Shown here: piece after piece, positions 9,594 to 43,852 of the stretch | Layout of the letters: each line of letters begins with the position of its first letter | How positions within the stretch are numbered: the first letter of the stretch is position 1 | Assembly (NCBI RefSeq): GCF_022842015.1 | Contig: NZ_JALHQJ010000003.1 | Span: 4,557 to 68,556 of the forward strand | DNA: 64,000 nt | Reading direction: 5' to 3' | Source: Nitrosomonas sp. | GTDB taxonomy: Bacteria; Pseudomonadota; Gammaproteobacteria; Burkholderiales; Nitrosomonadaceae | Made by a program: the position numbers and the translations under genes | The notes under the pieces: model-generated | Database searches by the model: none | The model's input: the letters and a program-made list of their open reading frames with translations, nothing else | What the model was told of the DNA's origin: nothing

Positions 9594-10640
9594 ATGTCAC
9601 TCGCCATACTGTATAGCCGCGCGCTTTCCGGTATTCAAGCACCGTTGGTGACAGTGGAAACGCACATCGCCAACGGCTTGCCCAGCTTCACCATCGTCGG
9701 CCTTCCCGATACCGAAGTTAAAGAAAGTAAAGACCGCGTCAGAGCGGCGCTGCAAAATGCACAATTCAAAATCCCTGCGCAACGCATCACCATCAATCTA
9801 GCTCCTGCGGACTTACCCAAAGAGAGCGGACGGTTTGACTTACCCATAGCATTAGGAATACTCGCCGCAACCGGGCAAATTCCCAAAGATAAACTGGACC
9901 AATATGAATGGGCTGGTGAACTGGCATTAACCGGAGAATTGCGCCCGATTCACGGCGCTCTGGCAATGACCTACAACGCATTACAATCTGGCCGCAGTTT
10001 TGTGCTGCCGGAACAAAATGCCGCTGAAGCCGCGCTAGTCAAAAAAGCCACGATCTACGCGGCCAAATCGTTACTACAAATCTGTGCGCATTTAACCGAA
10101 CGAGAAACCTTGCCCATTTTTTCAGGCGTAACCGAGGCCAGGAATGAAGACTCCACTTACCCGGATCTTGATGAAGTCAAAGGACAAACGCAAGCCAAAC
10201 GTGCGCTAGAAATTGCCGCCGCAGGTGGCCATAGTCTGCTAATGATTGGCCCGCCCGGTACCGGAAAATCCATGTTGGCGGCACGCTTCCCCGGTATTCT
10301 ACCGCCCATGACAGAGGTAGAGGCTCTCGAATCTGCAGCCATTCAATCACTTAGTTATGGTAGCTTCAATATTGAGAATTGGAAAAAACGGCCGTTCCGC
10401 TCACCGCACCATACGGCATCCGGTGTTGCTCTGGTCGGCGGCGGCAGCCACCCTCGCCCCGGTGAAATTTCACTGGCCTTGCACGGCGTGCTGTTTCTGG
10501 ACGAGCTGGCCGAATTCGACCGCAAAGTTTTGGAAGTGCTGCGCGAACCCCTGGAATCTGGAAAAATCACCATCTCACGTGCCGCACGTCAAGCAGAATT
10601 CCCGGCGCAATTTCAACTGATTGCCGCAATGAATCCGTGA
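9594..10640 (+). pseudogene. comM: ComM/YifB Mg-chelatase-like ATPase, 5' part interrupted by the integrated element
   Basis: [42 protein letters not shown]; ends abruptly at AAMNP with TGA formed at the junction; continues as CPCGYLG at 43851. Confidence 0.95.
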
Positions 10641-12175
10641 GGTTCTGTTGCCTTTTTACCACGATTTAAGGAGGAATAATTAGAAATTATTCCTCCTTGT
10701 TTTGAGCCTGAATCTGGAAGTTGAGTTGGTGGTGGAGTATAGAAAAGGTTTATTTCGATTTCTCCATCACCAATAATAATTTTCTCTACGATAGCTTCAA
10801 CAATACGACGTTTTTCTTCAAAGGGAAGCGACGGCCAGCGACTATAAAGATCACGAGCTTCTTCGATAGCTACTTCTTGGGAAAGATGAGAGATTTTAAG
10901 TATATCGATTTCGGCTTGGAGTCTAGGGATCTGCTCTTCAAACTGATCACGACGCTCAGCTAGGGGTTTATACTTTGTCCCGAAGCCATGTTTATCAATC
11001 ATGCCCGACTGATATAAGTCATAAAGCTTATCAATTTCTAAGGTAAGTTTTTCTGATTCCTTTTTCTGTAAAGTTAGAAGTTCAACCTTTTGCTTCACCG
11101 TTTCATTGGCCTGCTCAAGGTGAGTTGCAATCTCCTGATCTGATACCAGGAAACTCTTGATCTGTTCGTGAAATACGGCTTCAAGATCATCAATCGGCAT
11201 TTTGTTACGACATTGCTGGCAAGTGTATTTGGGGCTATTTGAGGGCACATACATCTTTGGGCCACAACTACAATAAGTTAGGCCGGAAAACAAATAAGTA
11301 GCGGGTTTAGCGGAGCGTTTAAGTTTATTTCTCTGCTCATCCAGAAAAAAGTTGCATTCCTGCCAGAGTTCTTCAGAAACAATTGGCTCTATTTTTGAAT
11401 ATACCCATTCCGATTCTGGTTTAAGTTGCCAAGCACCATTTCGATCTTCACTGGATGTATAGTTGGCTCGGCGAGTGCCAATAACAATTGTATCTCTGAG
11501 TAGTCTATCAATAGTTGTATCAGAGAATTTACCACCATTTCTGGTGCGGTAACCTTGTTCATTGAGAAGTCTTGCCACTAATTTCTTGCGTTTATGCTCC
11601 CGAAACAACTCGAACATGAGCTTGCGGACTTTGGCTTCCGCGTCATCAATGCAGAGTTTCTTATCCTTCCATTGATAACCATAAGGGGCTTGGCCACCAG
11701 TTGGTAAACCGGCTTTGGCGCGAATAGGCACCGCAGCAGCAACGCGCTCAGATATTTCTTCACGTTCCCATTGGGCCATGGCTGCAATCATAGTGTAAAA
11801 AAGGCGACCAGCAGGCGTAGATGTATCAATAGATTCTGCCAAGGAAATCAGGTCAGCACCATATTCCCTGAAAGTCTCAGAGAACTCCAAAAGTTCTTTG
11901 GTATTTCTAGCGAGGCGGGCCAATTTTGAGAAGATAAGGCCAGTGATATGACCTTCCCGCATGTCATTAATCATCCGCTTAGCTTCGGGTGTCTCTTTAA
12001 CCGTTTTTCCCGACACAGCGTCGAGTCGATACACCTCGACTACGTTCCAGTCTTTTGCTTCAGCATAAAGACGAGCACGGCGTTCGTGGGTCTCAGGACT
12101 TTCACCCCGCACCTGATCTTCAGTGGAAACTCGAATCCAGATTCCAACCCGCTTTGATTCGTTTTTTATGCTCAT
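10613..12175 (-). CDS. Large serine recombinase (integrase of the comM element)
   Basis: WIRVSTEDQ catalytic Ser, SKLARLARN, recombinase domain PYGY, Zn ribbon CSCG..CQQC, coiled coil; last 7 codons are comM antisense beyond the crossover. Confidence 0.95.
10638..10661. repeat. Left attachment junction: TG core + 7-bp spacer + arm GTTGCCTTTTTACCA (10647-10661)
   Basis: Arm is the exact reverse complement of 43829-43843. Confidence 0.92.
10668..10702 (+). terminator. 13-bp perfect hairpin just inside the left junction; possible terminator of comM read-through
   Basis: AAGGAGGAATAAT-TAGAA-ATTATTCCTCCTT followed by GTTTT. Confidence 0.5.
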
Positions 12176-12355
12176 TTGTGTACCTCGTATACAAATAGAG
12201 ATTAGCTAATTGTTATTTCCTAATTATCACGAATATTGATAGCTAAATAGAAAGCAATAGTTTCCGTTTTAGGAGAGTAGAATTATTATAAAGTGGTTTA
12301 GTGATAGACACGAAGTTTTATCGGCTTATTGATTTTGTTGATTAATTATTTCTCT

Positions 12356-12781
12356 ATGTGCGGTGGCATTAAATATCAAGATCAGAAAATCTACTTTCCC
12401 AAGTCCGATGCTCGGTTAACTGTATTGCTGCGACATGGTGGAGTAACCTGGATTACTTGGGGTAACCATACAACTGTCGATTCTAGTCGTTTTCCTAACG
12501 GTGGCTGGGCAAGGCTTGATTCCATTAAGTTAGGGAAGTGGAAACCTTGGCATCCCAGACCAGTTTTAATTCCGGCAGATAGTTTTATGGAAAAAGACCA
12601 CGACAAGCAATCTCACTGGATAGATTTAGCTCCCAGCATGGCAATTCAAGCATTGCTAGCGGAAAGAAATAATGAACAACGAGTTTATGTGGTTACCGAA
12701 AACGCTCCGATTGAATACAATTGGATTCATGATCGTTGGCCAAGACTAAGAAAACTTTCTGATAAACAAGAAAAACATTGA
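12356..12781 (+). CDS. Short SRAP/HMCES-like (SOS response-associated peptidase) protein
   Basis: Starts MCG (Cys2); FME and IHDRWP resemble the SRAP Glu and IHDRMP motifs. Confidence 0.6.
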   Translation: MCGGIKYQDQKIYFPKSDARLTVLLRHGGVTWITWGNHTTVDSSRFPNGGWARLDSIKLGKWKPWHPRPVLIPADSFMEKDHDKQSHWIDLAPSMAIQALLAERNNEQRVYVVTENAPIEYNWIHDRWPRLRKLSDKQEKH

Positions 12782-12791
12782 GATATTAATA

Positions 12792-13529
12792 ATGCGATTC
12801 ATTATTCTTCTTGCTTCGTTGCTGTCTTTACCGATCCACGCAGAAAGCACCTACAACCCAATTCTTAAAAGTATAAAGCCACATAGCATCACCATTATTG
12901 GCGAAACCCATAAGCGGCCAGAATCTTTTCAGTTATTCCAGTCAATAATAAACGACTATCTACAAAAAAATAAATGTCTTATCGTTGCTTTAGAAATTGC
13001 TAGTAACAAACAATCCACGATAGATCAAGTGATTCAAGGTAAAGCTAAAGTTTCTGATATTGAAGTCGCGCCACCGATTGATCATCCAGATTTCCGGGTA
13101 TTGATAGAGAACTTAGCAAAACTACAAAAGCATAATGACTGCTTTCAGTTAATTGCTGTAGATGCTGATATTAAACTGAAGACTGATCGTGATGAATGGA
13201 TGGCTAAAGAGATGACTAAGCAGATTGGGAAGACGTCAATACTTGCGCTCTTGGGAAGTCTGCACACCTTAAAGAAAGTGAACTGGAATCCGGAACTGAC
13301 TCGCAAACCACCTTATCTACCAGAAATCCTTATTTCCAAAGGCTATGCCGTGCAAACGTATCCACAAATCTGGAAAGATCGCGAATGCAACACTCATTTT
13401 CAATTTATCAATGCAGATCAACCGGAAGCTACTGAATTACTCAATACCAGCTTGTTTTCTGTATTGAATGCTTCTAAACCCAAAACTGTATCGAATATTA
13501 TTGATGGAGTCATTCTCTGGAAATGTTAA
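12792..13529 (+). CDS. Secreted hypothetical protein, possible ChaN/EreA-like fold
   Basis: Signal peptide; IIGETH and VALE motifs; LLGSLH. Confidence 0.45.
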   Translation: MRFIILLASLLSLPIHAESTYNPILKSIKPHSITIIGETHKRPESFQLFQSIINDYLQKNKCLIVALEIASNKQSTIDQVIQGKAKVSDIEVAPPIDHPDFRVLIENLAKLQKHNDCFQLIAVDADIKLKTDRDEWMAKEMTKQIGKTSILALLGSLHTLKKVNWNPELTRKPPYLPEILISKGYAVQTYPQIWKDRECNTHFQFINADQPEATELLNTSLFSVLNASKPKTVSNIIDGVILWKC

Positions 13530-13549: not shown

Positions 13550-14278
13550 TTAAAGAATATGAGCTCCGGCCAATTCAAGTTTTTCTTTTTTCTTTTCCCA
13601 CATAGGATACTTCTCACTTAAAAAAGCAAAGAATTTTTTATCGTGGTTTTTATACCGCATATGGCAGAGCTCATGAACTATTACATAGTCAATACAGTCT
13701 TTTGAAACATGAATTAGTTTAGGATGTAAGACAATTTTTTCTTTACTGATAAAACTACCCCAACGCTTTTTCATATCACGCATTGATAGTATCGGCATTT
13801 GTTTATAGTCAAACCTCTCCTTCATTACATCAAAACGATCAGCAAAAACTTTCTCTCTTTTTTCTTTAAACCAGCTGGTCAACAACTTTTTAGTATATGT
13901 ACTATCTGCAACAGATTTAGTTGTCTGTACCAAAAGTACGCCACGTAGCAGCAACACCTTGTCTTCCAAACTTTGTTTAACAAGTAATTGGTGCTGGCGA
14001 CCCAGGTAGTAAAAACTCTCGCCCGACACATATTCTTTTGTATACGCTTTTCGTTGGTGCTTTCCAAAGAAATGAAGTTGTTTTTGAAGCCAATACCACT
14101 TACGTTTAAGAAACTGCTCTATTCTCTCGGGAGCAGTATCATGCGGACACTTAACACAAATTCGCATGTCAGGCGTAACGGTCAGACCAAGGGTTTTTCT
14201 ATCTTGTGGAATGAGGTCGTAGCAGTAAACAAATGAACCGAAAATAAATTCTTTTTGATTCTTATGAGAAGATTTCAT
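13550..14278 (-). CDS. YgjP/M48-like metallopeptidase associated with type I RM
   Basis: MKKRWGS and YVIVHELCH (HExxH); ATG at 14278 overlaps the hsdR 3' end. Confidence 0.85.
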   Translation of the reverse strand: MKSSHKNQKEFIFGSFVYCYDLIPQDRKTLGLTVTPDMRICVKCPHDTAPERIEQFLKRKWYWLQKQLHFFGKHQRKAYTKEYVSGESFYYLGRQHQLLVKQSLEDKVLLLRGVLLVQTTKSVADSTYTKKLLTSWFKEKREKVFADRFDVMKERFDYKQMPILSMRDMKKRWGSFISKEKIVLHPKLIHVSKDCIDYVIVHELCHMRYKNHDKKFFAFLSEKYPMWEKKKEKLELAGAHIL

Positions 14279-17200
14279 AATTATTTTCTGCAAGAGTGAG
14301 CGTGTTGTTTATAATCGCTCGCATATCCGCGTCAGACAAATCAACTCCTTTCTCTTTTTTCACAACGTCATACAGATAATCGTCGAGAGTGTTCATAATA
14401 CGACGCTTCACATCAAGATTTTTGTACCAATCAACAATCGCTTCAGCTTTCACAATACCGAATATATCAAGAGTAATCACAATAAACGCATCCTCAGCAA
14501 CATCAAACTTTTTGAAATCTTCTTTAAGGTTGCGATAGAAAATATCAGATCCTTTTATAGATTCAATGGCTCCAGGCAGAAACTCATCCTTTTTACTTAC
14601 AACATCATCACTTATCAATTTAAGCTGTTTGAGCGCCGCCACGTCAGCTAGTTTTCCGTCACGCATCTTCTTCAAGATCTCTGAAATCTTCTTAGAAAAT
14701 CGTTCATAGAATTCAGGATCAGAATCCAGCTTTTCAGAAATAGTCTTTTGGGTTTGGGCTGCAATTGCTTCAGCCTTCGATTTGTCAGAACCAAGCGATT
14801 CAATCGCTTCCTCAAACTGTTTGCGATCTGTAATATTTATCTGCTTTGTAAGCAACTCCACACCCATTGCATCAACGTATTTGTCCAAAATATTCACCAG
14901 GGATTGCTTGTACTCAGCAAGATCAACTCGATCTGCGTATTTCAAACTCGCTGTCTTGCGAAGTTCCATAAATTTCTTAAGTTCACGGGTATACATATCC
15001 AGGCTATCAAACTCATGTACAAAGTCCTGCAATACAAAACACTCATTCAGATTTCTAATAAATGCGTTGAGGGTTTTATAGAACACTTCACGAGTTGGAG
15101 CATCATCAAGTAGCTGTAAGAAAGCCTCATCATCAGATGTGCCCTTAATGGCTTTGAAAATGTCATGCAAAAGACTGTAGCTCTGTTCAAGTTCTTCTAT
15201 CTTTTCAGCAACATCAATAAGGGTTCCCTGTACATCGGCTTCATCATAATTACCGAAGAGCTTCATTGCAGTATCAATATTCTTGGCATTCTCAGAATAA
15301 TCAATGATATATCCCGCAGTCTTTGGCAATTTCTTGTTTTCATGGAGCCGATTTACACGAGCAATTGCTTGAAGTAGGTTGTGATCTTTCAGATCCTTGG
15401 CGAGATATAGAACCGTATTGCGTGGCGCATCAAAACCAGTGAGTAGCTTATCTACTACGATAATCACTTCAATACCGTCATCGTTGTATTTAAAGCTATC
15501 AATAACATCCTTTTCATATTTCGTCACACTGCTGTGATTTTTTCTGATTCCATCAAGATATTTCACAACCTCGGCTTTATGTGTGTTTGCTTCATCGCCG
15601 TCATCATGTTCATCAGAAACTACAACTGCAGTGCGTATATTCCCGCGTTCCTGAAAGAATTTTTGAAACAAAACCGCTGAGAACTTGGATGGCGCTACAA
15701 TCTGCGCCTTAAGACCAGTATCTTGAAAATGTTTAGTGAAATGTTTTTCGATATCGTAGCCAATCTCGACGATTCTCTGAGGATTATCCTTAATGACTTT
15801 TGTACCAATATATTTTTGAAGTTCTTTTTTCTGTTTATCATTTAGAGCTTCAATAATACGTTCGACATGGCGATCAATCTGCTCTTCATTCTGAACCAAG
15901 TCCACATACCGACCTTCATAGATGAGCGGGAGAATTATGTTATCTGCTAAAGCGTCATCAATCGTATATTTATCAATATAGCCGCCAAATTTCTTCCAAC
16001 TCTCCTTATCCTTCTTCATGAGTGGAGTACCAGTAAAGCCGATATAGCACGCATTTGGAATAATGCGATTCATCTCAAGACTTGCGATACCGCTTTGACT
16101 TCGATGCGCCTCATCAATGAGTACAAAAATATTTTGATCAGAATCGACAAAACCAGCTTTCTTTTTTGCAGCTGATTCAAACTTATCAATAATCGTGGTA
16201 ATAACACCGAGGTTTCGATCCTTAATGAGATCAAGAAGATTCTGACCGCTCGTTGCCTGAATAACTTCCTTCTTAAGATTACAGTTTTTAAAGGTATCTT
16301 TAATTTGTTTATCCAGATCCTTACGATCGGTTACGATAATGACTCGGGGATTACTAATGTGCGGATTCTCAATGAGAGCTTTCACAAACATCACCATGGT
16401 GAGCGATTTACCAGATCCTTGGGTGTGCCATACAAGCCCACCTTTGCGACGAGTAATACCAGATTCTGAAGTCTCAGTTTCATCGACTCGTTTAAGCATT
16501 TTGTGAATCGCAAAGTATTGCTGATAGCGTGATAGTTTCTTTACCCCTGCATCAAAAAGAATGTAGTTTTTGGTGAGATCTAAAAGTCGTGCAGGTTCAA
16601 ACAACGCCAAGATGCCCCGATCCTGTTCAGTAGGCAATCTTTGGGTTTTTTGTTTGTGCCCGTCAGTGTACCCATTGAGGTCTTTCAGTACCTTCTCATA
16701 TACGGCATCATCAATCTTTTTACCAATGAGTTCTTTTGCTCGCTCATTTATTTCTTCAAAGGTCATCTCTTTTTCTTTCCAGACCGCATAAAACTTATTT
16801 GGGGTACCAGTAGTGCCGTACTGAAATTCCTTACCATTGGAACCTACAAGAAGTTGAGTGTAGGTAAAAAGTTTTGGGCAAAACTCAGGCCCCTGATTCC
16901 TATTCATCTGATTGATTGCCTCAATGACTGCCACACTCGATTTCTTGTTCTCAATGGTGGCGAATGGAATACCATTCACAAAGCATTGAACATCAGGGCG
17001 GATGTTCTGCTTACCACTTGCTACAAACTCAGCAGTCACATGAAATACGTTGTTTTCTGGATACTCAAAATCAATGAATCGAAAATTCTTTGAAATGGTC
17101 TTTCCACCCGCGCGCACACGGATAGTTTTACCACCCGAGGTGGGCATAATGATGTTGTATATCTTTTGAGACGTATCAATGAGACCCTCGTACTGAATAT

Positions 17201-17450
17201 GCTCAAGTTCGTCCACCGCACCTTGGACATCCTTTTCACTAAACGTATAGCTTTCACCATCAACTTCGTACTCATTGATCTCCATGAGTTTCACACTGGC
17301 GATATTCGCCAAAATGAAATTACTTGTGTCACCACCACGTTCAAGTAGCGCCTCTTCTGCGGATATGTATTGATATCCCATCGCCAAAAGTAGCTCTAGT
17401 GCAGTGAGCTGTGATTGTTTGGCTTCATCGAAGTGTACTTTTTCTAGCAT
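14262..17450 (-). CDS. hsdR: Type I restriction endonuclease subunit R
   Basis: RPDVQCFVNGIPFATIENK nuclease motif, HTQGSGKS, DEAHRSQ, FTGTP, KLLTGFDAP. Confidence 0.95.
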   Translation of the reverse strand: MLEKVHFDEAKQSQLTALELLLAMGYQYISAEEALLERGGDTSNFILANIASVKLMEINEYEVDGESYTFSEKDVQGAVDELEHIQYEGLIDTSQKIYNIIMPTSGGKTIRVRAGGKTISKNFRFIDFEYPENNVFHVTAEFVASGKQNIRPDVQCFVNGIPFATIENKKSSVAVIEAINQMNRNQGPEFCPKLFTYTQLLVGSNGKEFQYGTTGTPNKFYAVWKEKEMTFEEINERAKELIGKKIDDAVYEKVLKDLNGYTDGHKQKTQRLPTEQDRGILALFEPARLLDLTKNYILFDAGVKKLSRYQQYFAIHKMLKRVDETETSESGITRRKGGLVWHTQGSGKSLTMVMFVKALIENPHISNPRVIIVTDRKDLDKQIKDTFKNCNLKKEVIQATSGQNLLDLIKDRNLGVITTIIDKFESAAKKKAGFVDSDQNIFVLIDEAHRSQSGIASLEMNRIIPNACYIGFTGTPLMKKDKESWKKFGGYIDKYTIDDALADNIILPLIYEGRYVDLVQNEEQIDRHVERIIEALNDKQKKELQKYIGTKVIKDNPQRIVEIGYDIEKHFTKHFQDTGLKAQIVAPSKFSAVLFQKFFQERGNIRTAVVVSDEHDDGDEANTHKAEVVKYLDGIRKNHSSVTKYEKDVIDSFKYNDDGIEVIIVVDKLLTGFDAPRNTVLYLAKDLKDHNLLQAIARVNRLHENKKLPKTAGYIIDYSENAKNIDTAMKLFGNYDEADVQGTLIDVAEKIEELEQSYSLLHDIFKAIKGTSDDEAFLQLLDDAPTREVFYKTLNAFIRNLNECFVLQDFVHEFDSLDMYTRELKKFMELRKTASLKYADRVDLAEYKQSLVNILDKYVDAMGVELLTKQINITDRKQFEEAIESLGSDKSKAEAIAAQTQKTISEKLDSDPEFYERFSKKISEILKKMRDGKLADVAALKQLKLISDDVVSKKDEFLPGAIESIKGSDIFYRNLKEDFKKFDVAEDAFIVITLDIFGIVKAEAIVDWYKNLDVKRRIMNTLDDYLYDVVKKEKGVDLSDADMRAIINNTLTLAENNYEIFS

Positions 17451-17456
17451 GATAGT

Positions 17457-18713
17457 TTATTTAGAAATTGATAATGATTCAGGTGTGGGGATCGCTCCAG
17501 TAACGAGTTTGTTGAGGAGATATTTCTTTTGGTCTTTAAGAATTGTTAGCTTTTGTTTAAGTCGATAAATTTCTTTGTCCGCAACGTCTAGAATTTCTGC
17601 GATTGCTGATTGTTCTTCAAATTCAGGTATTTTTATGTTTATTTTTCCTAATTCTCCAAGATATACACCCCCTTGAGCACCTCTACTTTCCCTTTGCTTC
17701 AACTGTTTCTGAAAATTGCTTGCTTGCATTAGTTGAAAAAAAAATTCTGGACTTTGATTTTTAAATCTTAGAATTCCAACACTACGTTGAAATGTATAAT
17801 TATTTTTATAATCTTTAGTTAAAGCTACTCTTCCAATAGACCCAACCAAGCAAAGTAGCAGATCCCCATTTTGTATACGATATGATTTATGAATTTGTTC
17901 AAATTCTGTCTGACTAATAAGTCTAGGATCATTATTAGTGATAACATTTCCATCGACAATATCTTTGGCACTAAGTAACGGAATACCATTTTTGACATTC
18001 ATGTGAGTTGCGTGGGTACCATCTTTTATTAAAGAAGTAATTTGAGTCAGTTTATAAATCTTCCATGGATTATTGAATCCCGGTAAGCGTGTCTTGCTTG
18101 TAAGCAATTCCTGCATCAAACCTTTTTTGATTTCTTTCTTAATTTCAATCTTTCGCTTCAAGCTTTTAATTGAGTGATCCCAGGCACCTAAAACTGCAGC
18201 GATCCTTTTTTGTTCAGAAATAGGTGGCAAATGGAGTTTAACTTTTTTTAAATCTCCAACATTTACATGCTCCATCGTAGAACCAGTTTTTATTCTTCTT
18301 ATCTGTCTTTTACCCTCTAGTGATCTAAAGTATTGCAAGAAGTATTCTGGCGAAGCAATTTGTTTTTTAAGTCTAGTGATAATTAATGCGTGACAGTTTG
18401 CTCCAACTAATTTAGGTGGAACAATTGTTGTTAAACCAACTTCACCAGTTTGAACTATAAGCAAATCTTTTTCCTTTAAAATTGACTTGCTATTTTTTGT
18501 ACTAAATTCTGGTGTTACTTTTTTTATACCATTAAAATTAAATCCAAAATCAGTGACGTTGTAACCTTGAACATAGGTAACCCCATTAGGTTCTTCAGTG
18601 TAGTTCTCTACCGCCTTACCAACAAATCCATTGGTCATAAGTTCACACGCGTCATTCATTGTGACTTCTTCCCATGTTTCAGGAATATTCTGTTGTTCCT
18701 GGTTAGTTTTCAT
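17457..18713 (-). CDS. hsdS: Type I RM specificity subunit S
   Basis: Two TRDs with conserved PPISEQKRIA and PEFEEQSAIA repeats, KKGLMQELLT. Confidence 0.92.
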   Translation of the reverse strand: MKTNQEQQNIPETWEEVTMNDACELMTNGFVGKAVENYTEEPNGVTYVQGYNVTDFGFNFNGIKKVTPEFSTKNSKSILKEKDLLIVQTGEVGLTTIVPPKLVGANCHALIITRLKKQIASPEYFLQYFRSLEGKRQIRRIKTGSTMEHVNVGDLKKVKLHLPPISEQKRIAAVLGAWDHSIKSLKRKIEIKKEIKKGLMQELLTSKTRLPGFNNPWKIYKLTQITSLIKDGTHATHMNVKNGIPLLSAKDIVDGNVITNNDPRLISQTEFEQIHKSYRIQNGDLLLCLVGSIGRVALTKDYKNNYTFQRSVGILRFKNQSPEFFFQLMQASNFQKQLKQRESRGAQGGVYLGELGKINIKIPEFEEQSAIAEILDVADKEIYRLKQKLTILKDQKKYLLNKLVTGAIPTPESLSISK

Positions 18714-33871: not shown

Positions 33872-33874
33872 ATT

Positions 33875-35257: not shown

Positions 35258-35638
35258 ATGAAGTTATTGCTACGTCGTAATCAAAAAACCGGCATGCTCG
35301 GAAAAATCATCTTTATCATCGCCGTCCGCGCGGAACTATCCGATGAAGAAAAAGCCGATATCAAAAAATACAAACTTGGCGATACTATGCTCTATGAACG
35401 CTCCAAAATCGCTGATCCCGGTAGCGGACTTCTTGGCATGGCTTCACGCTTAGCTTTCAGAATGATTAATCTGTCAATCTCAGTTAATGATTTAGAGAAG
35501 GGAAAAGAGGTTGAGTGCAAAGATGTGGTGGAAATGCTGGCCGTTGAAGAACAAATAAAAGAAGCCGCCCATACCTTTCGGACAGTCCTTGGAGCCGCTA
35601 GTACTTTTGGTGGTGAGGAAATTATCGAGATCAATTAA
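35258..35638 (+). CDS. Hypothetical protein
   Basis: 126 aa, SD-like GAGGAG upstream, abuts the 926-aa gene. Confidence 0.65.
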   Translation: MKLLLRRNQKTGMLGKIIFIIAVRAELSDEEKADIKKYKLGDTMLYERSKIADPGSGLLGMASRLAFRMINLSISVNDLEKGKEVECKDVVEMLAVEEQIKEAAHTFRTVLGAASTFGGEEIIEIN

Positions 35639-38419
35639 GTGTCTCAAAACTGGCTTTCCTGGCTCAAACCTTCGCCTAAACAATTAGAACAGGCGGAGAT
35701 GCTGACTATGTTGCAGCAGTTACAGCAGCATAGTCAGTGGGCATCGCCTCTCAATACCGAAGACAAAGTTAACAACTTTATAATTGATGTCATTGCTGAT
35801 GCTTGCAGTGAGCATGGCACTCTACCCGGCATACCTTTAGGCGAAGCGCTATTCTACGCCATCAAAACTCTTTTAAAAGATGATTCAATTATCGGAGAGT
35901 TACCAACTGAATCAGAAATTTGCCATCTAAGTATTGAAGAAGGTGTGCGTCTCCGAGCCGCTTTTAGACGCTATGAGCGGTTTCTAGCAACCCCAGATCG
36001 ATTATTAGCTATCTGGCAGGCAAAGCTCATATGGCTTTTTAGAGGTCTGCTTGGATATTTTCCCGAGTCCGCGTTTATTGATGTTAATGAAAATGGACAA
36101 GGTGCTGATGATTCCGTTGTTTTCCCCAAAGCTCAGGCTTTTGATCTTTGCGACAACCTTCCGGAAGTCATTCAGCGCATCATCGCGACTTTATTTGATG
36201 AGGATGTTGTTGAGGCACAGCTTTTTGCGCCAGAGCGAGACATATTTAACCGGAATTTGTTAAAAGCATCAGGCTATTCACCTGATGCTACCTTTAACCA
36301 TGATCCCAAAATAATATTACCCACAGAAAGCAAACTTAGAGAACCTGCGGCGTTGGTCGATGCGTATTTAGGCGGTACGCCATTTCAGGAACTGTTATAC
36401 AGCCCATTACCGTTTGCGATTCCGTTTCCGGCCCGATTTGAACACACGCACATTGTTGGCGGGACTGGGCACGGCAAAACCCAGCTTATGCAATTCTTGA
36501 TTCATCACGATATTGTGCGCTCACAAGATGATGGACGCTCAATTGTGGTGATTGATAGCCAAGGTGATTTGATCAATACCATTTCAAAGCTTGGTTATTT
36601 TAGCAATCCGGCACTAGCCGAACGTTTCGTACTCGTTGATCCAAACGATATTGAGCATCCGGTATGTCTAAACATGTTTGATTTCAATCGGGACAGACTA
36701 AGCGGTTATGCACCGGTTGACCGGGAAAAGATTTTAAATGCCACCATTGAGCTTTATGAGTATTTCTTTGGTGCTCTTCTTGGCGCTGAACTTACCCAAC
36801 GCCAAGGACTAATATTCCGCTACTTGGCCCGGTTATTGATTGAGATTCCCGATGCCAATATTCATACACTCAGGGAATTGATGGAAGATGGGGCAAAATT
36901 CCGGCCCTATATGGAGAAACTAACCGGTACGGCCAGAAGTTTCTTTGTCACGCAGTTTTTTGATAAAAAATTTGGTGAGACCAAAAAGCAAATTTTGACC
37001 CGTCTTTGGGGTGTGCTATCGAATTCATCCTTGGAGCGGATGTTTTCCCATACTCGCAATCGGATAGACATCTTTGAGCTCCTAAATCAAGGCAAGATTA
37101 TTCTTATTAATACCGCCAAGGACTTGTTAGGGCAAGACGGTGCAGCCATTTTCGGGAGATTCTTTATTGCCCTGATCGCTCAAGCCTCGATTCAACGGGC
37201 CGCCATGCCACCGCATACCCGTCGATCAGCTTTTGTTTATATTGACGAAGCGCAAGACTATTTTGATGACAATATTTCGCATCTGCTTAATCAAGCTAGA
37301 AAGTATCGAGTAGGACTGATCTTTGCTCATCAAAACATGGATCAATTAACTGCCAATCTTCGTTCCAGTGTACTGGCTTCCACCACCATTAAATTTGCCG
37401 GTGGTTTAAGTGCCAAGGATGCCGGAGTTCTTGATTCTGAATTCCGTACCGATGCCGATTTCTTGCTAGGTATGAAGAAAGGGAAAAATCATACCGAGTT
37501 TGCTTGTTATGTGAAGAACTACACTAATAAAGCGCTGACAGTATCGATTCCACTCGGGTTTGTGGAAGATAAACCCAAGATCACAGCCTTTCAGTATGAA
37601 GAGCTTTTGGATCGGAATCGTGAGTTATACAGTGAACCGCCACTATTGCCTGAAGAAATAGCGTTTCCTGAGCAGAGCAAACCAGAGTATAAAGGGCTAC
37701 AACCAGCCAAACCCAAAGAAACAACACCAGAAAAGCCATCACAGCCAGTGGCTACACCAGCTGAGCAAGAAAAATCCGCTTCACATGTACAACAGTCAAT
37801 TATCACGCCTATTGAATCGGAAGTACCTACTACACCAGAAGCCACCGCTAAAACAACCGCTGCGCCTAAAAAAGCGAAACCCATACCACCAGAGGATATT
37901 CCTCAAGCTGGCCGTGGTGGGCGACAACATAAGTATCTGCAACATTTAATCAAGCAATTGGCCGAAGAACGCGGATTCCGTGCCACTATTGAAGAAACCA
38001 TATTGGATGGCGCTGGACGGGTCGATGTATCGCTTATTCGTGAGAAAATACGAGTAGCTTGCCAAGTTTCGGTCACCACTACCAAAGATTGGGAACTTGG
38101 TGGTATCGAGAAGTGTTTTGCGGCTGGCTATACCGAGGTAGTGCTGGTATCGGGGACGGAACGGCATATCAAGAAATTATCCAAGTTTGTGGAAGAAAAC
38201 CTTGATCCCAAGGATCAGGGACGTGTCCGGTATATAATTCCTGATGGCGTTATTGAGTTTCTTGATAGTCTTGGGAAATTTACTCCGACTGAACAAGTGG
38301 TGCGTGGATACAAAGTACGCACGGTGCAACAGGCTACTGATTCAGAAGATGCGGCTTCGAGGCGGAAAGCAATTTCGGAGGTTATTGCTAGGTCGTTGCA
38401 GAAGGAGAGGGAGAAATAA
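35639..38419 (+). CDS. Large VirD4/TraD-like ATPase with Pro-rich linker and nuclease-like C-terminal domain
   Basis: HTHIVGGTGHGKT, VIDSQGDL, YIDEAQDY, QARKYRVGL; C-terminal GRVDVSL..VACQVSV. Confidence 0.75.
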   Translation: MSQNWLSWLKPSPKQLEQAEMLTMLQQLQQHSQWASPLNTEDKVNNFIIDVIADACSEHGTLPGIPLGEALFYAIKTLLKDDSIIGELPTESEICHLSIEEGVRLRAAFRRYERFLATPDRLLAIWQAKLIWLFRGLLGYFPESAFIDVNENGQGADDSVVFPKAQAFDLCDNLPEVIQRIIATLFDEDVVEAQLFAPERDIFNRNLLKASGYSPDATFNHDPKIILPTESKLREPAALVDAYLGGTPFQELLYSPLPFAIPFPARFEHTHIVGGTGHGKTQLMQFLIHHDIVRSQDDGRSIVVIDSQGDLINTISKLGYFSNPALAERFVLVDPNDIEHPVCLNMFDFNRDRLSGYAPVDREKILNATIELYEYFFGALLGAELTQRQGLIFRYLARLLIEIPDANIHTLRELMEDGAKFRPYMEKLTGTARSFFVTQFFDKKFGETKKQILTRLWGVLSNSSLERMFSHTRNRIDIFELLNQGKIILINTAKDLLGQDGAAIFGRFFIALIAQASIQRAAMPPHTRRSAFVYIDEAQDYFDDNISHLLNQARKYRVGLIFAHQNMDQLTANLRSSVLASTTIKFAGGLSAKDAGVLDSEFRTDADFLLGMKKGKNHTEFACYVKNYTNKALTVSIPLGFVEDKPKITAFQYEELLDRNRELYSEPPLLPEEIAFPEQSKPEYKGLQPAKPKETTPEKPSQPVATPAEQEKSASHVQQSIITPIESEVPTTPEATAKTTAAPKKAKPIPPEDIPQAGRGGRQHKYLQHLIKQLAEERGFRATIEETILDGAGRVDVSLIREKIRVACQVSVTTTKDWELGGIEKCFAAGYTEVVLVSGTERHIKKLSKFVEENLDPKDQGRVRYIIPDGVIEFLDSLGKFTPTEQVVRGYKVRTVQQATDSEDAASRRKAISEVIARSLQKEREK

Positions 38420-38713: not shown

Positions 38714-39148
38714 ATGAAAAATCTTTTTGATAGAAATCTTTCGTTAATAGAATCCGAAGTAGGTAATAATCTACTGTTGTATGATACTGTTAAAGAAGTA
38801 TTCTTTGTACTTAATCCACCAACAAAATTTATATGGCTGTTGTATTCCGAGGAGGATTCAATTACGCCAATCATCCAAATGATCAAAAAGTATTATAAGC
38901 ACCCTGCAAGAGAAAAAGAAATTATGGATGATGTTATCCAGATGGTAGATGAGCTAAAAAAAAATAAAATCCTTATCCCTGCAGATAATACTAAATCATC
39001 TCATTCCCAGTCCTTAAACTTAAGTACTTCTATTGAAGAACAATACAGCAAACCAACCCTAAGAAGTCTTACAAAAGAATGGATGCTGGAGTACCATCCA
39101 GACTCATATTACAGGGGTTCCCATTTTAGTGACCTGTGGGATTCTTGA
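38714..39148 (+). CDS. PqqD/RRE-family protein with C-terminal precursor-like tail
   Basis: Residues 1-89 PqqD-like (LLLYD..FFVLNPPTKFIWLL..DDVIQMVDELKKNKIL); Ser/Thr linker; YSKPTL at 111-116; aromatic-rich tail. Confidence 0.75.
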   Translation: MKNLFDRNLSLIESEVGNNLLLYDTVKEVFFVLNPPTKFIWLLYSEEDSITPIIQMIKKYYKHPAREKEIMDDVIQMVDELKKNKILIPADNTKSSHSQSLNLSTSIEEQYSKPTLRSLTKEWMLEYHPDSYYRGSHFSDLWDS

Positions 39149-40115
39149 ATTGAAAAGCTTTTCTTTTCTCTCTACTCCTGTTAAAAAATTAATTGAACAA
39201 GACTATCCTGAATTAAATTATGGAGAATACTTTTCTTCAATTGAATTTGAAGATCGGTCATTGCTGGTAGAAACGAATATTCCAAATTTAATTCCATTAC
39301 TGAACAAAAGATTCTATTGTGTCTCAAAAACAAAATTATCTTTTTGCCAAGCTTTTGTTAAGATTATTAAATCAAAAGAAAACCTTATTATTGAAACATC
39401 TTACAGAAAAACAATTTGTTTATGGAATGAATTATCTATATTTTTTGTAAAAAGAAATTCAACAAATAAAATTATTCAGGCTGGTAGTTTCAATCAGGCA
39501 ATTGGATCAAGCGACCCCCTTGATGACTCACTTACAGCCGAAATTAACACCCTAATATATTTTTTCATTGAAAGAGAAATTCTTTTAGAAATAAATTACT
39601 TATATAGAGATTATCTTTTTTTGCACGCATCATGTGTATATAACGATATGAGTAAGTTAGTCTTTCTGGGGCCGTCCTATTCGGGAAAAACGACACTTGC
39701 ATCAGCATTTGAATCTCTCGGCTGGCAATTTTTATCTGATGACATCATTGCAATCCACAGAATAACAAAAGAAATTAAATCATTCCCCAAAAAGAAACAC
39801 TTGCGCGAAGGAACAAGGAATCTTATCAATAATATTCATTTATCCAAAATTGCGAAGAAAGAATATATGAATAAACCAAATACTCGAGGATATTTTTTAT
39901 GCGGTTATAACCAAGGCCATGACCCGGAAGTAATTCCGGTCACTAACTTGGCTGATACACTTAATCAGATTTCACAGCATTTAATCATTCAAACTAAAAT
40001 GAATGGTGAAGAGAAATTTAATCAACTTTTTCCAATATTTGATAAATGGGAATTCTTCGAAATTCGAAGCATTTATGGTGACTTAACAAGCACTATTGAA
40101 GGCATTATCCAATGA
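39129..40115 (+). CDS. HPr-kinase-related P-loop kinase
   Basis: FLHAS, GPSYSGKTT, FLSDD motifs. Confidence 0.75.
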   Translation: MTCGILELKSFSFLSTPVKKLIEQDYPELNYGEYFSSIEFEDRSLLVETNIPNLIPLLNKRFYCVSKTKLSFCQAFVKIIKSKENLIIETSYRKTICLWNELSIFFVKRNSTNKIIQAGSFNQAIGSSDPLDDSLTAEINTLIYFFIEREILLEINYLYRDYLFLHASCVYNDMSKLVFLGPSYSGKTTLASAFESLGWQFLSDDIIAIHRITKEIKSFPKKKHLREGTRNLINNIHLSKIAKKEYMNKPNTRGYFLCGYNQGHDPEVIPVTNLADTLNQISQHLIIQTKMNGEEKFNQLFPIFDKWEFFEIRSIYGDLTSTIEGIIQ

Positions 40116-41077
40116 ATCCTACCACTCAAGAAAAAATACTTTTAACACCACAGATTAGAAAAGTGGTTGTTAAACTTACCAACAAGTGCAACCTGACTTG
40201 CAAACATTGCTATGTTTCAAGTCATCCACATGGAGAACATGGTCTTCAAGTAAATCAAGTTAAAAAAATTATCGATGAAACCTATAGATTGTATGGTTCT
40301 TTACTTTTTACACTCAGCGGGGGTGAAGCTCTCGTTAGAAAAGCAGATGTACTAAATCTGCTCAGATATTCAAAAAATTTTCATAAAACAGCTTTATATT
40401 CTAATGGAACTTTATTTACTAAAACTGTGAGCGAGCAGATTGCAGCGATAAGCCCAATAGTTCAAATAAGTATTGACGGTGCCTCATCATTTTCTCACGA
40501 TACCATGAGAGGGTCCGGAGCTTTTGATCGTACCCTTCATGGAATTGAAAATCTACTTACTGCCGGCTTGTCTTCCGAAAACATTCAGATTTTCTCGTCT
40601 ATTACAAATGAAACGGTTGAAGAAATGAATGAAATTCTTATGCTTGCAGATCGCTTGAGCATCAAGAGAGTGAGATTCGAACCAATTGCAAAAACAGGGA
40701 GAGCGAAAGAAACATGGCCAGATTCAGCTTCCCAAGTTTATGAAAACACTACCAAAAAATATCTAACGTATATAAAAAACCAAAAGGAATGGGTTAATGA
40801 TTGGGTTATGGAAGAAAGAAGAGACCTAAATTTTAATTTGCTTAAAATCTATAGCGATGGAACGGTGATGCCATATGCCTATTACGATGAAGAAGATAAG
40901 AAACTGGGCTCATTAGGAAATATTTTTGTCAATGATATTACAGAAATAGTCAATCCAGAAAATTTTACAAAAAAAATCATTGGGAAGTTTATCAGCGTAT
41001 CAAGTGGCCCCCAGCGAAGCTTGAAAGCTATTCAATTTACAAAACGAGGTTGTAATTTGTTATGGGATGTAATATGA
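40112..41077 (+). CDS. Radical SAM enzyme
   Basis: CNLTCKHC, SGGE, ISIDG; ATGA coupling to the kinase. Confidence 0.9.
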   Translation: MNPTTQEKILLTPQIRKVVVKLTNKCNLTCKHCYVSSHPHGEHGLQVNQVKKIIDETYRLYGSLLFTLSGGEALVRKADVLNLLRYSKNFHKTALYSNGTLFTKTVSEQIAAISPIVQISIDGASSFSHDTMRGSGAFDRTLHGIENLLTAGLSSENIQIFSSITNETVEEMNEILMLADRLSIKRVRFEPIAKTGRAKETWPDSASQVYENTTKKYLTYIKNQKEWVNDWVMEERRDLNFNLLKIYSDGTVMPYAYYDEEDKKLGSLGNIFVNDITEIVNPENFTKKIIGKFISVSSGPQRSLKAIQFTKRGCNLLWDVI

Positions 41078-42453
41078 GCTCTTTCCCAACATCTAAATCC
41101 AACAAAGAAATAATTGCTACGCTGCATCATCATAGATCAACTCTCTTCTCGTTTGAAAAAGAAGATCGTGTGATTCTCGGGGCAGTGTTCTCTAACTATA
41201 TGACAGCGCTCAATCGAGCAGCTCAAGTGATACGAAATGTAACCAATATTAAAACTAATCACACCATTCTCCTTAAAAGTCCGATAGATTCTTACCTCAT
41301 TAAACCTGTATCAGATACTTGTAATTTAAGATGTACTTATTGTTATGAAGGAGAAAAAGTAATTCGCAAGAACGGAAAAATGCCGTTAAGTCTTTTGGAA
41401 CCATTAACGAAGCAAATCATTGACATATCTCATGATAAAATCACAATTTCATGGCATGGTGGAGAACCCATGCTTAGAGGAATTGACTTCTTTAAGAAAG
41501 CTCTTTTCTATCAAAATAAATATAACAAAAAAGACCTCACAATCATCAATTCAATTCAGAGCAATGGCACATTGTTAACGAATGAATGGATCGAATTTAT
41601 ATTACTTCATAACATTAAAATCGGCATTAGTGTTGATGGACCTCTCTTATTACACGACAAATCTAGGATAGATTCAAATAATAAGGGAACCTATAATAAA
41701 GTAAAAGAAAGTATAAAAGCACTACAGCAAAGAGGAATAAATCCGGGAATAATATCAGTCATTCAGCCTCATCACATTGGAAATGCAAAATTGTATTTCG
41801 AAGGAATTGTAAAATTGGGTATCAGGAACTTAGATGTGCATCCATCTTTCGGATTTCACGGCCCAAGTGACCCTACAACCATTACAGCAAAACAATTTTC
41901 TAATTTCATGATTGAATTATTCGAATTGTGGTTAGCTTTTGGCGATCATACTATCAGGATAAGAGCTTTTGATGAATTTTTCAAAGGTTATTTAGGTGAA
42001 AAACCCGTTGTTTGTCACAATAATGGTGGTTGTTCAAAAATCTTAGCAATAAATGCAAATGGTGAAGTTATTCCATGCACCAGGCCATTTCATGACAAAG
42101 AATATATTTTTGGAAATCTTTATTCAACTTCATTACATGAAATAATACAAAGTAGCAAATGGAAAAATTTTGTTCAAAACGAAATAAGTGGTCAAAATCT
42201 CTCATCTGACTGCAAATGGAAAAGTATATGTTATGGAGGATGCCCTCAACATAGATATTCAGACAATCAGCAGGATATTAATTCATCAAACTATTTTTGT
42301 AGCTGCAGGAATAAAGATGAGAGCGGTTTCGGTCAATTATGGAGCCATATGCTGTGTAGAACGGATAGCATTATTTCGAATCTTAATGAAAAACACCTCG
42401 ATTGTTTGGTACAGACCTACGATAATAGATACAATCAAAAAGTAACCCCATAA
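41074..42453 (+). CDS. Radical SAM/SPASM maturase (anSME-like)
   Basis: CNLRCTYC, WHGGEP, SPASM-type C-terminus C..GC..GEVIPC..CKWKSICYGGCP..FC.C; ATGA coupling. Confidence 0.9.
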   Translation: MSSFPTSKSNKEIIATLHHHRSTLFSFEKEDRVILGAVFSNYMTALNRAAQVIRNVTNIKTNHTILLKSPIDSYLIKPVSDTCNLRCTYCYEGEKVIRKNGKMPLSLLEPLTKQIIDISHDKITISWHGGEPMLRGIDFFKKALFYQNKYNKKDLTIINSIQSNGTLLTNEWIEFILLHNIKIGISVDGPLLLHDKSRIDSNNKGTYNKVKESIKALQQRGINPGIISVIQPHHIGNAKLYFEGIVKLGIRNLDVHPSFGFHGPSDPTTITAKQFSNFMIELFELWLAFGDHTIRIRAFDEFFKGYLGEKPVVCHNNGGCSKILAINANGEVIPCTRPFHDKEYIFGNLYSTSLHEIIQSSKWKNFVQNEISGQNLSSDCKWKSICYGGCPQHRYSDNQQDINSSNYFCSCRNKDESGFGQLWSHMLCRTDSIISNLNEKHLDCLVQTYDNRYNQKVTP

Positions 42454-42455
42454 AA

Positions 42456-43289
42456 GTGACATTTAATCTTGGTGGAAAATTCGAAATTAACCGAATTGGT
42501 TATGGTGCCATGCAGCTCACTGGTAAGGGTGCTTTTGGTGAAATTCAGGATCAGGAAAATGCAATAAACCTTTTACAAACCGCAATCAGCAGTGGAGTAA
42601 ACTTTATTGATACTGCAGAAGCTTATGGACCTCATACCAATGAAATATTAATCAAAAAAGCACTTTATCCTTATAAGGAAGATTTGGTCATTGCGACGAA
42701 AGGTGGTCTCTTCAGACCTGGTCCATTTCAATGGAAATACAATGGCAATCCGGACTTTATCCGGAAAAATATAGAATCCAGTCTAGAAAGGCTTCAGATT
42801 GAAAGCATTATTTTATGGCAACTGCATCGAATTGACCCTGAAGTTCCAATTAAAAAAACGCTGGAACCTGTACTTGATGCTGTGAATACGGGAAAGATAA
42901 AGTTTGTTGGCTTGTCAGAAGTTTCCATAGATCAATTGAAAGCGGTTGAAGAAATTTTGCCTATTGTTTCAGTTCAAAATCTCTATAATCTCTCGATAAG
43001 GAAGTGGGAAGATATGGTTGATTATACAGCCAGCAGAAATATTGCATTTATTCCGTGGCACCCATTACATTCAGGAAAACTTTCCTTATCAGAAAAGATT
43101 AGAGATATTGCAATCGCTCACGATGCGACAGTGTACCAAATTGCATTAGCTTGGCTGTTGAAACGGTCCTACAATATTATTCTAATTCCTGGCACGAAAT
43201 CACTCACACATTTAATTGAGAATTTAAAATCTGCAGACATTAGATTATCAGATTCTGAATTTACTGAAATCTCAAAAGCAATGTATTAA
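42456..43289 (+). CDS. Aldo/keto reductase
   Basis: IGYGAM, FIDTAEAYG, IATKGG, LHRID, VGLSE, SVQNLYN, LIPGT. Confidence 0.9.
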   Translation: MTFNLGGKFEINRIGYGAMQLTGKGAFGEIQDQENAINLLQTAISSGVNFIDTAEAYGPHTNEILIKKALYPYKEDLVIATKGGLFRPGPFQWKYNGNPDFIRKNIESSLERLQIESIILWQLHRIDPEVPIKKTLEPVLDAVNTGKIKFVGLSEVSIDQLKAVEEILPIVSVQNLYNLSIRKWEDMVDYTASRNIAFIPWHPLHSGKLSLSEKIRDIAIAHDATVYQIALAWLLKRSYNIILIPGTKSLTHLIENLKSADIRLSDSEFTEISKAMY

Positions 43290-43357
43290 AAAATGTGTTC
43301 TCATATAAAAATATCACGAAATACGGGTTGATAAATATACAATAAAAAAAGACCAAT

Positions 43358-43825
43358 TTATTTACCATGTCGCTCATTCCACTGCTTTCTCATAGTTTTA
43401 TCAATAATATCCTCATTCATACCAAGAAATGAAGCAACGAGTCGCCGGTGATCATTCTTCATGATCGTTCCACCGCCTTCCCAATCCTTTACAGTACAAG
43501 GATCAACGCCTAAATTCCTAGCAACTACCCGCTGGCTCCACCCTAATTCTCGGCGCTTGGCAAACAACAATTCCGCAATTGATTTGGGATTCAAGTTAAC
43601 AGGATCATAACCAAGAAATTTGATCAGGATCGGCGTTTGGCAAAATTTTGGTTCTGAATGCCCATTTTCCCAGTTACCAACGGTGAAGTGAGTAACATTA
43701 AATAGCTCTGCTACCTCTGTTTGTTTCATATTAAGAAAAAGCCTTCGTTTAAGAATGTGTTCACCAATTGCTTTTGGTTCAAATTCATAAGGCTTAGGAA
43801 TTAATGACTTAAGTGAGGTGCGCAC
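43358..43825 (-). CDS. Tandem XRE-type HTH protein; predicted C-terminal module of the excised-state integrase
   Basis: Two HTH units (LKRRLFLNMKQTEVA..VGNWENG; KRRELGWSQRVVA..VKDWEGG); GTG start with no SD-like sequence; frame is open back to the TG core and closed by TAG at 43862-43864. Confidence 0.85.
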   Translation of the reverse strand: MRTSLKSLIPKPYEFEPKAIGEHILKRRLFLNMKQTEVAELFNVTHFTVGNWENGHSEPKFCQTPILIKFLGYDPVNLNPKSIAELLFAKRRELGWSQRVVARNLGVDPCTVKDWEGGGTIMKNDHRRLVASFLGMNEDIIDKTMRKQWNERHGK

Positions 43826-43828
43826 ATA

Positions 43829-43852
43829 TGGTAAAAAGGCAACGCGTCTATG
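43829..43852. repeat. Right attachment junction: arm TGGTAAAAAGGCAAC (43829-43843) + 7-bp spacer + TG core
   Basis: Exact inverted copy of 10647-10661 at the same 7-bp distance from TG. Confidence 0.92.

Follow-up and report, generated by a model that had tools for sequence, protein, structure and literature searches.

A comM insertion in Nitrosomonas sp. attributed to a large serine recombinase with an attP site predicted inside its own gene

A stretch of 64,000 nucleotides from Nitrosomonas sp. (assembly GCF_022842015.1, contig NZ_JALHQJ010000003.1), referred to here as the window and used for all positions below, carries an element inserted in the gene comM. The inserted segment is 33,213 bp long (10640-43852), with a GC content of 39.1% against 47.0% and 45.5% in the two flanks. 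We consider it highly probable, as far as the structure of the locus is concerned, that this is a scarlessly reversible insertion mediated by LSR1, a large serine recombinase (LSR) encoded at the left junction, and that the insertion split the integrase gene along with comM. On this reading, which rests on sequence comparison, LSR1 would have inserted the element by conservative site-specific recombination between a palindromic attP of about 46 bp and an attB encoding AAMNP|CPCG, with strand exchange at TG. Precise LSR1-mediated excision would restore a comM of 501 codons without a scar. The free circle would encode a 676-aa protein in which the recombinase is joined to a tandem helix-turn-helix (HTH) module (LSR-HTH), and the integrated element a 520-aa enzyme without this tail. 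The integrated state would strand the HTH module at the far end of the element without a conserved start codon, and the integration state would rewrite the integrase itself. The coordinates of all features are listed in Table 1.

The interrupted comM gene and its att sites

Analysis of the comM fragments revealed that the open reading frame (ORF) of the 5' fragment stops at a TGA (10638-10640) made up of the crossover TG and the first base of the element. This fragment matches the rejoined ComM at 100% over residues 1-348, and joining 9594-10639 to 43853-44312 in silico gave an uninterrupted ComM of 501 aa. Intact comM genes of about 500 aa were found in 22 of 24 other species of the genus; their products are 75-91% identical to the rejoined ComM over the full length, the best congener reaching 91%, and the DNA of the congeners is collinear across the join, with no indel. 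The insertion thus lies within a gene of the Mg_chelatase family (ComM/YifB). ComM is cut at residue 348 and, since no second comM copy was found in this genome, the assembled genome is comM-null. The host carries intact dprA and comEC; the loss of comM could therefore matter.

The left junction (attL) reads ...ATGAATCCG-TG (10638-39)-AGGTTCT (10640-46)-GTTGCCTTTTTACCA (10647-10661) and the right junction (attR) reads TGGTAAAAAGGCAAC (43829-43843)-GCGTCTA (43844-50)-TG (43851-52)-CCCTTGCGGC. The two share TG alone, that is a 2-bp crossover without long direct repeats. The predicted attB is GCCGCAATGAATCCG-TG-CCCTTGCGGC and the predicted attP is GGCAACGCGTCTA-TG-AGGTTCTGTTGCC, the latter being palindromic with the layout 15-7-2-7-15 and with its 15-bp inverted arms placed 7 bp inside each junction. 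The arm 15-mer occurs exactly twice in the 64 kb, once per strand, even when up to two mismatches are allowed (0.14 copies expected).

A total of 343 genomes with LSR1 relatives were found in a scan that used one genome per species. Locus counts out of 80 refer to the best 80 of these 343 (58-82% identical), whose hosts are Saccharibacteria and other members of the Candidate Phyla Radiation, Beta-, Gamma- and Alphaproteobacteria, Acidobacteriota, Bacteroidota, Planctomycetia, Dehalococcoidia and others. At 57 of the 80 loci the attL junction is shared, with the recombinase directly adjoining a convergent comM fragment that ends at residue 348-351; it was resolved to the base in 23 genomes. The other loci comprised 11 with an HTH-fused recombinase, two with a different arrangement and ten that were uninformative, mostly because of contig ends. 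The attR junction is shared by 23 other genomes, and at least 24 split genomes have an HTH ORF abutting comM residues 345/349-501 elsewhere on the contig. The crossover falls in the first Cys codon of AAMNPCPCG at all base-resolved sites (24/24). The family attB consensus is GCnGCgATGAAyCCn-TG-yCCnTGCGG (24 sequences), and the family attP consensus, in the sense of the recombinase, is ...GGCAAC-N7-CA-N7-GTTGCCtTttTGCcA (33 sequences). Because a conserved T precedes the CA, the cut comM mostly ends in TGA right at the junction. Judged from these alignments the site is no chance palindrome, as arms, spacing and CA/TG crossover are repeated in 33 family members and attB is kept in 24 of 24. The comparison with related genomes shows the LSR1 insertion step at comM, as read from the aligned junctions; scarless excision we infer from how serine recombinases work chemically and from the fact that sites and ORFs are intact and match the family consensus. 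At two alphaproteobacterial loci (L072 and L073), what comes after the recombinase is a C-terminal comM-like segment in the same orientation (34-42% identity), in place of the convergent N-terminal fragment. This arrangement could reflect the other orientation, another paralog as target or a rearrangement.

These results agree with much of an original prediction made from the window's sequence alone. Both junction strings that it gave are present base for base, and the symmetric attP with a TG crossover, the change of TGC (Cys) to TGA and the restored 501-aa ComM were all recovered; the comparison with intact-comM relatives that it proposed found the site empty, without an indel at the join, in 22 of the 24 congeners. 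Its description of comM as a recurrent target of mobile elements is backed by published work (PMC10083194, PMC11472951). It had also taken the identity of the two arms as a sign of a recent or active element, and this could not be upheld: the arms are recombinase-binding half-sites that lie inside the element, in coding DNA, and are selected across phyla. As functional half-sites under selection, their symmetry is uninformative on age.

Inverted repeats close to both ends might also suggest a transposon, with terminal inverted repeats of 15 bp and TG as the duplicated target, for example a Tn7-like island of the AbaR type, for which comM is a classic target in Acinetobacter (PMC11472951). However, Pfam, NCBIfam and PHROG searches of the element ORFs gave no match to a transposase or to TnsA, TnsB or TnsC genes, and terminal transposase-binding repeats were not found, the repeats being located 7 bp inside the junctions and not at the ends. 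Furthermore, the junction occurs at the identical base in 24 genomes, and in unsplit relatives the two arms lie together in a single palindrome within an LSR gene. For these reasons the transposon reading was excluded, its probability being practically nil.

LSR1 and the attP site within its gene

Sequence analysis of LSR1 identified the resolvase catalytic domain PF00239 at residues 12-156 (1.3e-33) and the Recombinase domain PF07508 at residues 179-275; the best curated NCBIfam matches are CcrB and XisF. In an alignment of 18 homologs the motif RVSTEDQ with the nucleophilic S17 is invariant, as are the zinc-ribbon cysteines C302, C304, C319 and C322. The AlphaFold model of P0003, a natural full-length homolog, has long antiparallel helices (346-449) between the zinc-ribbon strands, as in a coiled coil. 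The catalytic domain, the Recombinase domain with a zinc ribbon and predicted coiled coil, and sites with a 2-bp crossover place LSR1 in the LSR class. Homologs from the species scan and the protein database together are 58-95% identical to LSR1. No relatives of the LSR1 family were found in IMG/VR, and none beyond about 30% identity in PLSDB plasmids.

The LSR1 ORF has no stop codon inside the element. It crosses attL and ends 25 bp into antisense comM, from which its last eight codons and the stop are read. At the opposite end the HTH module appears in the ORF list with 155 aa and a GTG start at 43825 (43358-43825), and its frame is open with that of LSR1 up to the crossover. In the rejoined circle the LSR1 frame passes through attP into the HTH ORF, giving 676 aa versus 520 aa in the integrated form; the remaining two frames across the window attP are full of stops. 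When attP was rebuilt for other genomes, the recombinase-HTH frame was continuous in 22 of 23, the exception having a degenerate arm. Continuity is kept despite a variable linker length and two codon phases: one subfamily has the crossover in phase 0 and an arm that encodes RVAFLP, while another has it in phase 2, so that the same DNA is read as ALPFC. The DNA site and the open frame are therefore each kept independently.

Natural unsplit forms were also found. The protein database contains single proteins of 650-685 aa with Resolvase, Recombinase, HTH_3 and HTH_31 domains that are 56-67% identical over all 676 aa, and at the 11 unsplit loci the attP palindrome is located within the linker coding sequence. 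All closer relatives of LSR1 (75-95%) have 503-650 aa with variable tails and no HTH. Recombination of attL with attR would restore an in-frame LSR-linker-(HTH)2, the arrangement that defines a self-splitting LSR-HTH family. The P0003 model shows a complete LSR core, a disordered linker (478-526) with the attP-encoded stretch, and two well-folded HTH domains. Since the core is complete before the linker, the integrated isoform is predicted from the model to retain every canonical LSR domain and to lose the accessory tandem-HTH tail only.

Our analysis further covered possible expression signals of the two parts. A conserved ATG or GTG start with a Shine-Dalgarno sequence was not found for the HTH fragment across the family, and its only recurrent in-frame start-like codon is a TTG within the att arm. 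No promoter-like site was found upstream of the fragment in the window, a result that is not decisive. No copies of the att arm that might act as operators were found in the LSR1 promoter, only a 10-bp inverted repeat (ATTTGTGTAC/GTATACAAAT) at 12174-12196 over the LSR1 Shine-Dalgarno sequence and start codon, which could serve translational or operator control of LSR1.

A perfect 14-bp stem-loop (AAGGAGGAATAATT/AATTATTCCTCCTT) lies at 10668-10698, in the linker coding region of LSR1 and 6 bp from the att arm. Stem-loops of other sequence occupy the same place in the close relatives L001, L002, L004, L006, L011, L018 and L054, so that the feature belongs to a subfamily and is not seen in distant members. 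As a terminator shielding LSR1 from comM read-through it failed the T-tail rule of the terminator scan. Owing to this failure and to its restriction to a subfamily, it was dropped as a defining feature.

The sequence consequence of integration is plain: LSR1 has 520 aa in the integrated state and 676 aa in the rejoined circle. A functional consequence may be deduced from this change of isoform, and the full-length form is most likely limited to the interval between excision (or transfer) and re-integration. We tentatively propose, as a possibility that we rate well below even, that the position of attP in the integrase gene serves as a built-in switch of both directionality and state, with no need of a separate recombination directionality factor (RDF). 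The full-length LSR-(HTH)2, which only the free circle can encode, might be competent, targeted or self-limited for attP x attB recombination; the integrated tail-less core might have a different activity, being excision-prone or silent; and stranded HTH modules with their P' half-sites might seed arrays of recombinase-less cassettes at comM, which would make comM a pan-bacterial platform for cargo accretion. The original prediction had also presented the att pair as directly usable with its integrase. The sites themselves hold, but the 520-aa ORF as annotated is chimeric, its end lying in host DNA, and the form belonging to the free element is the 676-aa LSR-HTH.

Contents, relatives and alternative readings

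Backbone and cargo were sorted by comparison with 130 fetched loci. The element consists, according to this comparison, of a conserved backbone and three variable cargo blocks, mostly of anti-phage defence genes. In the backbone, to which LSR1-HTH and LSR2 also belong, the ArdC-like, 243-aa and 444-aa proteins occur near LSR1 homologs in 12, 29 and 20 other loci, respectively, and RadC, the 396-aa ATPase, the 126-aa protein and the 926-aa ATPase in 9, 34, 5 and 24; the gene order from RadC to the 926-aa ATPase is the same in L127 and G075. The two TraD/TrwB-like ATPases score far below the curated cut-offs. No relaxase or type IV secretion genes were recognised on the element ORFs with Pfam, NCBIfam and PHROGs, several backbone proteins being without annotation, and these databases gave no replication annotation for backbone proteins.

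Within cargo block 1, a 475-aa ATPase resembling OLD, AriA and GajA (AAA_15/AAA_21; 18703-20130) is placed between hsdS and hsdM with overlapping stops and starts, which recalls the PrrC-type riders on type I systems. No homologs of cargo block 2 were found in the other fetched loci; its 859-aa AAA_13 protein (30590-33169, minus strand) has a full-length match to the PADLOC candidate system PDC-S06 (1e-124). The PqqD, radical-SAM and aldo/keto reductase cluster of block 3 (38714-43289) likewise had no counterpart, and because it is missing from all other fetched elements it was taken as cargo specific to this copy.

Table 1. Positions of the comM fragments, att sites and element genes in the window.
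Feature	Positions	Strand	Description
comM 5' fragment	9594..10640	+	348 aa; ChlI domain and most of the Mg_chelatase AAA+ domain; PF01078, PF13541
LSR1, integrated form	10613..12175	-	Large serine recombinase, 520 aa; Resolvase and Recombinase Pfam domains; ORF crosses attL
attL	10614..10661	.	comM half-site, crossover TG, inner 7-mer, 15-bp arm
Two small genes beside LSR1	12329..13529	+	150 aa; 245 aa with a weak Cofac_haem_bdg match, common to the closest relatives
Cargo block 1	13550..22226	-	YgjP-like metallopeptidase, type I restriction-modification (R-M) genes (hsdR, hsdS, hsdM, partial hsdS); Pfam, PADLOC
Backbone	22414..25886	-	ArdC-like anti-restriction protein (22414-23337), 243-aa and 444-aa proteins; Pfam
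LSR2	26194..27747	+	Second large serine recombinase, 517 aa; Pfam
Cargo block 2	27988..33169	.	274-aa orphan, cytidine-deaminase-like protein (29482-29940), 181-aa protein, 859-aa ATPase
Backbone	33305..38419	+	RadC, 396-aa TraD/TrwB-like ATPase, 126-aa protein, 926-aa TrwB/HerA-like ATPase; Pfam, NCBIfam
Cargo block 3	38714..43289	+	PqqD-like protein, 328-aa protein, two radical-SAM proteins (one SPASM), aldo/keto reductase; Pfam
Detached C-terminal module of LSR1	43358..43850	-	Two XRE/Cro-type HTH domains; Pfam HTH_3, HTH_31; P22 C2/HipB-like
attR	43829..43877	.	15-bp arm, inner 7-mer, crossover TG, then comM half-site
comM 3' fragment	43851..44312	+	Residues 349-501 of the rejoined ComM

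With two LSR genes in the element, LSR2 instead of LSR1 could in principle have made the comM insertion, or two elements could be nested. The element of the Saccharibacteria genome G075 (L130/L131, C1:236483-272110) appears to have been inserted through an LSR2-associated site: it is circularly permuted and extends from LSR2 to a copied C-terminal tail of LSR2 (residues 398-508), while LSR1-HTH and attP are intact in mid-element. The genome has an intact comM at another location. Such an arrangement suggests that LSR2 provides a second insertion route via a site in its own 3' end. At comM, however, the junction always abuts LSR1 whether LSR2 is nearby or not, and attP lies within LSR1. Homologs of LSR2 are located within 10 kb of LSR1 in 29 loci, where they travel with the backbone; nesting of LSR2 as a foreign element was rejected on this basis, LSR2 being a conserved backbone gene. 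An origin of the comM insertion through LSR2 or through nesting is thus very improbable.

The closest relative, L123, has an LSR1 protein about 94% identical and sits at the syntenic comM site of a related host, with the same backbone and a module of Vsr and C5-methylase in place of the type I R-M block. Among identical residues, 71.5% of the codons are identical between the window and L123 for LSR1 and 49-55% for the flanking host genes. LSR1 is less diverged at synonymous sites than the host flanks, and the integrase module was therefore exchanged horizontally after the hosts split. The codon comparison shows mobility on an evolutionary timescale, as distinct from present-day activity.

Recombinase-less derivatives were found in two congeners. 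In G044 (L121, C15:42500-51000) comM is intact, and an ars operon, an HTH fragment and attR separate it from a duplicate of the comM 3' fragment. In G050 (L120, C44:15500-23500) comM 1-364, which contains stops, is separated from comM 349-501 by two large ORFs, an HTH fragment and attR.

Arrays are present in other genomes. G002 contains two tandem units of the comM C-terminal part plus HTH (L082, L110), and the comM island of the Acidobacteriaceae genome G023 (L138/L139, C4:123142-158611) contains four near-identical starts of P' half-site and HTH, which differ in the cargo that comes after them; its only LSR lies at the comM-proximal end. All three internal junctions of G023 are identical (...GCAGTCCTCTGATCT|CA|TCCCTGCGTTGCC...) and part from attR precisely at the crossover. 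This array looks like recombinase-mediated accretion or shedding of cassettes.

One of the 80 loci, L039, has within the element an intact comM of its own, immediately upstream of the recombinase (8400-12515). It is 89% identical to the disrupted host fragment and has the target motif AAMNSCPCG instead of AAMNPCPCG, and it looks like a target-immune replacement allele. The metagenome-assembled genomes G078, G079, G084 and G085 (L134-L137) combine an unsplit LSR1-HTH and an intact attP with an empty canonical AAMNPCPCG attB; this would mean that the full-length enzyme is held inactive in them or that the bins contain several subpopulations.

Several observations weigh against an insertion that remains reversible and splits its integrase in the way proposed here. 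The assembly contains the integrated state only, with neither an attP nor an attB junction, and no RDF was identified. The decayed remnants without a recombinase at the same site in G044 and G050 mean that such elements do become fixed. comM is intact in 10 of the 11 genomes with an unsplit LSR1-HTH and retains the canonical AAMNPCPCG in at least four of them, and the full-length protein is therefore not driving integration to completion there. Lastly, the HTH fragment could conceivably have its own start at the TTG inside the att arm.

The lack of junction contigs in the assembly and the congener remnants, together with the stranded HTH modules arrayed in G023, would also fit an element that LSR1 integrated in the past and that can no longer be excised here, with comM lost for good. 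We regard this as unlikely, given that the backbone ORFs are all intact and fit the family consensus, as do LSR1, its HTH module and the two att sites, and that LSR1 was exchanged more recently than the hosts diverged. A regulated switch, in which signal-driven excision and re-integration toggle transformability in the manner of the Listeria comK prophage ('active lysogeny'), seems to us quite unlikely. Scarless reversibility is built into the sites, the host retains dprA and comEC, competence genes are enriched among LSR targets (PMC10083194), and transformation with heterologous DNA drops when comM is lost, which may shield mobile elements from curing (PMC11472951), all of which would suit a switch. 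On the other hand, the assembly holds no excision product and neither a regulator nor an RDF was identified; L039 brings its own intact comM with an altered motif; the congeners regained comM through a new 3' end and not through excision; and no nucleotide stretch of this near-universal gene is more conserved than the target, which alone explains why it serves as a landing pad across phyla. From the conservation of the target, the L039 comM, the G044 and G050 remnants and the intact comM genes beside unsplit elements, we argue that comM is mainly a conserved landing pad, as opposed to a deliberately toggled gene.

A reversible insertion by LSR1 that also splits the integrase gene remains the preferred reading. 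Reversible splitting of comM by an LSR island is a published pattern, to which the window adds a well-resolved att pair and little else. The family, present in hundreds of species from many phyla, has its att site in the recombinase gene and encodes two isoforms of the enzyme, set by the integration state. Such a design may offer a handle on the control of serine-integrase directionality without a separate RDF. It also implies that catalogues and tool screens taking ORFs from integrated copies use truncated, host-tailed chimeras. As an accretion site for defence cargo, comM is relevant to why competence genes serve as targets, and the altered motif of the L039 comM suggests the logic of a landing pad over deliberate sabotage of transformation.

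Comparison with known systems

Insertion of LSR elements in comM is already known. Durrant et al. (2022, Nat Biotechnol, PMC10083194) reported that 12.4% of predicted site-specific LSRs target the gene for the Mg-chelatase/ATP-dependent protease (ComM/YifB) and found competence genes to be enriched as LSR targets. The LSR1 element shares with these the enzyme class, the target gene family and the intragenic insertion. The term 'helix-turn-helix' is absent from the main text of PMC10083194, and no mention of attP inside the recombinase ORF was seen there. The prophage in comK of Listeria (A118/phi10403S type; PMC3556126) likewise has a serine integrase and interrupts a competence gene that is restored on excision; it differs in being a phage, in its target comK, in an attP not reported inside int and in regulatory excision shown experimentally, the LSR1 element being an island in comM known from sequence. 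AbaR and Tn7-like islands interrupt comM of Acinetobacter baumannii with loss of transformability (PMC11472951). These move by TnsABC-like transposition, whereas the LSR1 element shares with them a cargo-rich interruption of comM but lacks Tns genes.

A location of attP inside a gene of the element is known from two kinds of system. In the 'suicidal' tyrosine integrases of the SSV type, found in archaeal viruses and plasmids, attP is in the integrase ORF, integration splits the gene and excision rebuilds it (PMC7253208, PMC8371274). LSR1 resembles these in having attP inside int and in being split on integration. Unlike them, LSR1 is a bacterial serine recombinase with no Phage_integrase domain, which sets it outside the SSV type, and it loses the accessory tandem-HTH tail only, whereas the split in the archaeal systems destroys the enzyme. 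In the integration-dependent immunity of mycobacteriophages (Broussard 2013, as cited in PMC8092301) and of the corynephage CyranoPS (bioRxiv 10.64898/2026.10.29.762952), attP is located inside a phage gene. As in LSR1, the free and integrated forms differ in the protein C-terminus, which amounts to an isoform switch. The gene concerned is, however, a repressor in systems with a tyrosine integrase, and 15-35 residues with a degradation tag are lost; in the LSR1 element the gene is that of the serine integrase, which loses folded DNA-binding domains of about 155 residues.

IntP of Mx8 is another case of attP inside the integrase gene. The published cases of attP in the element's own gene that we found are tyrosine-recombinase systems only, the literature searched being incomplete. 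No published example of a serine integrase with attP in its own gene was found in the same incomplete search, an absence that is no proof. The self-splitting LSR-HTH design, for which no published serine case was found, is accordingly the less ordinary part of the locus, insertion in comM by an LSR being established.

The staphylococcal cassette chromosome (SCC) and pseudo-SCC elements at rlmH in staphylococci also use large serine recombinases at a conserved intragenic site and form tandem cassettes without a recombinase. Their insertion leaves rlmH active, and their att site is not known to lie inside ccr. The LSR1 family resembles them in that CcrAB is among the best NCBIfam matches of LSR1 and in cassette accretion of the kind seen in G023.

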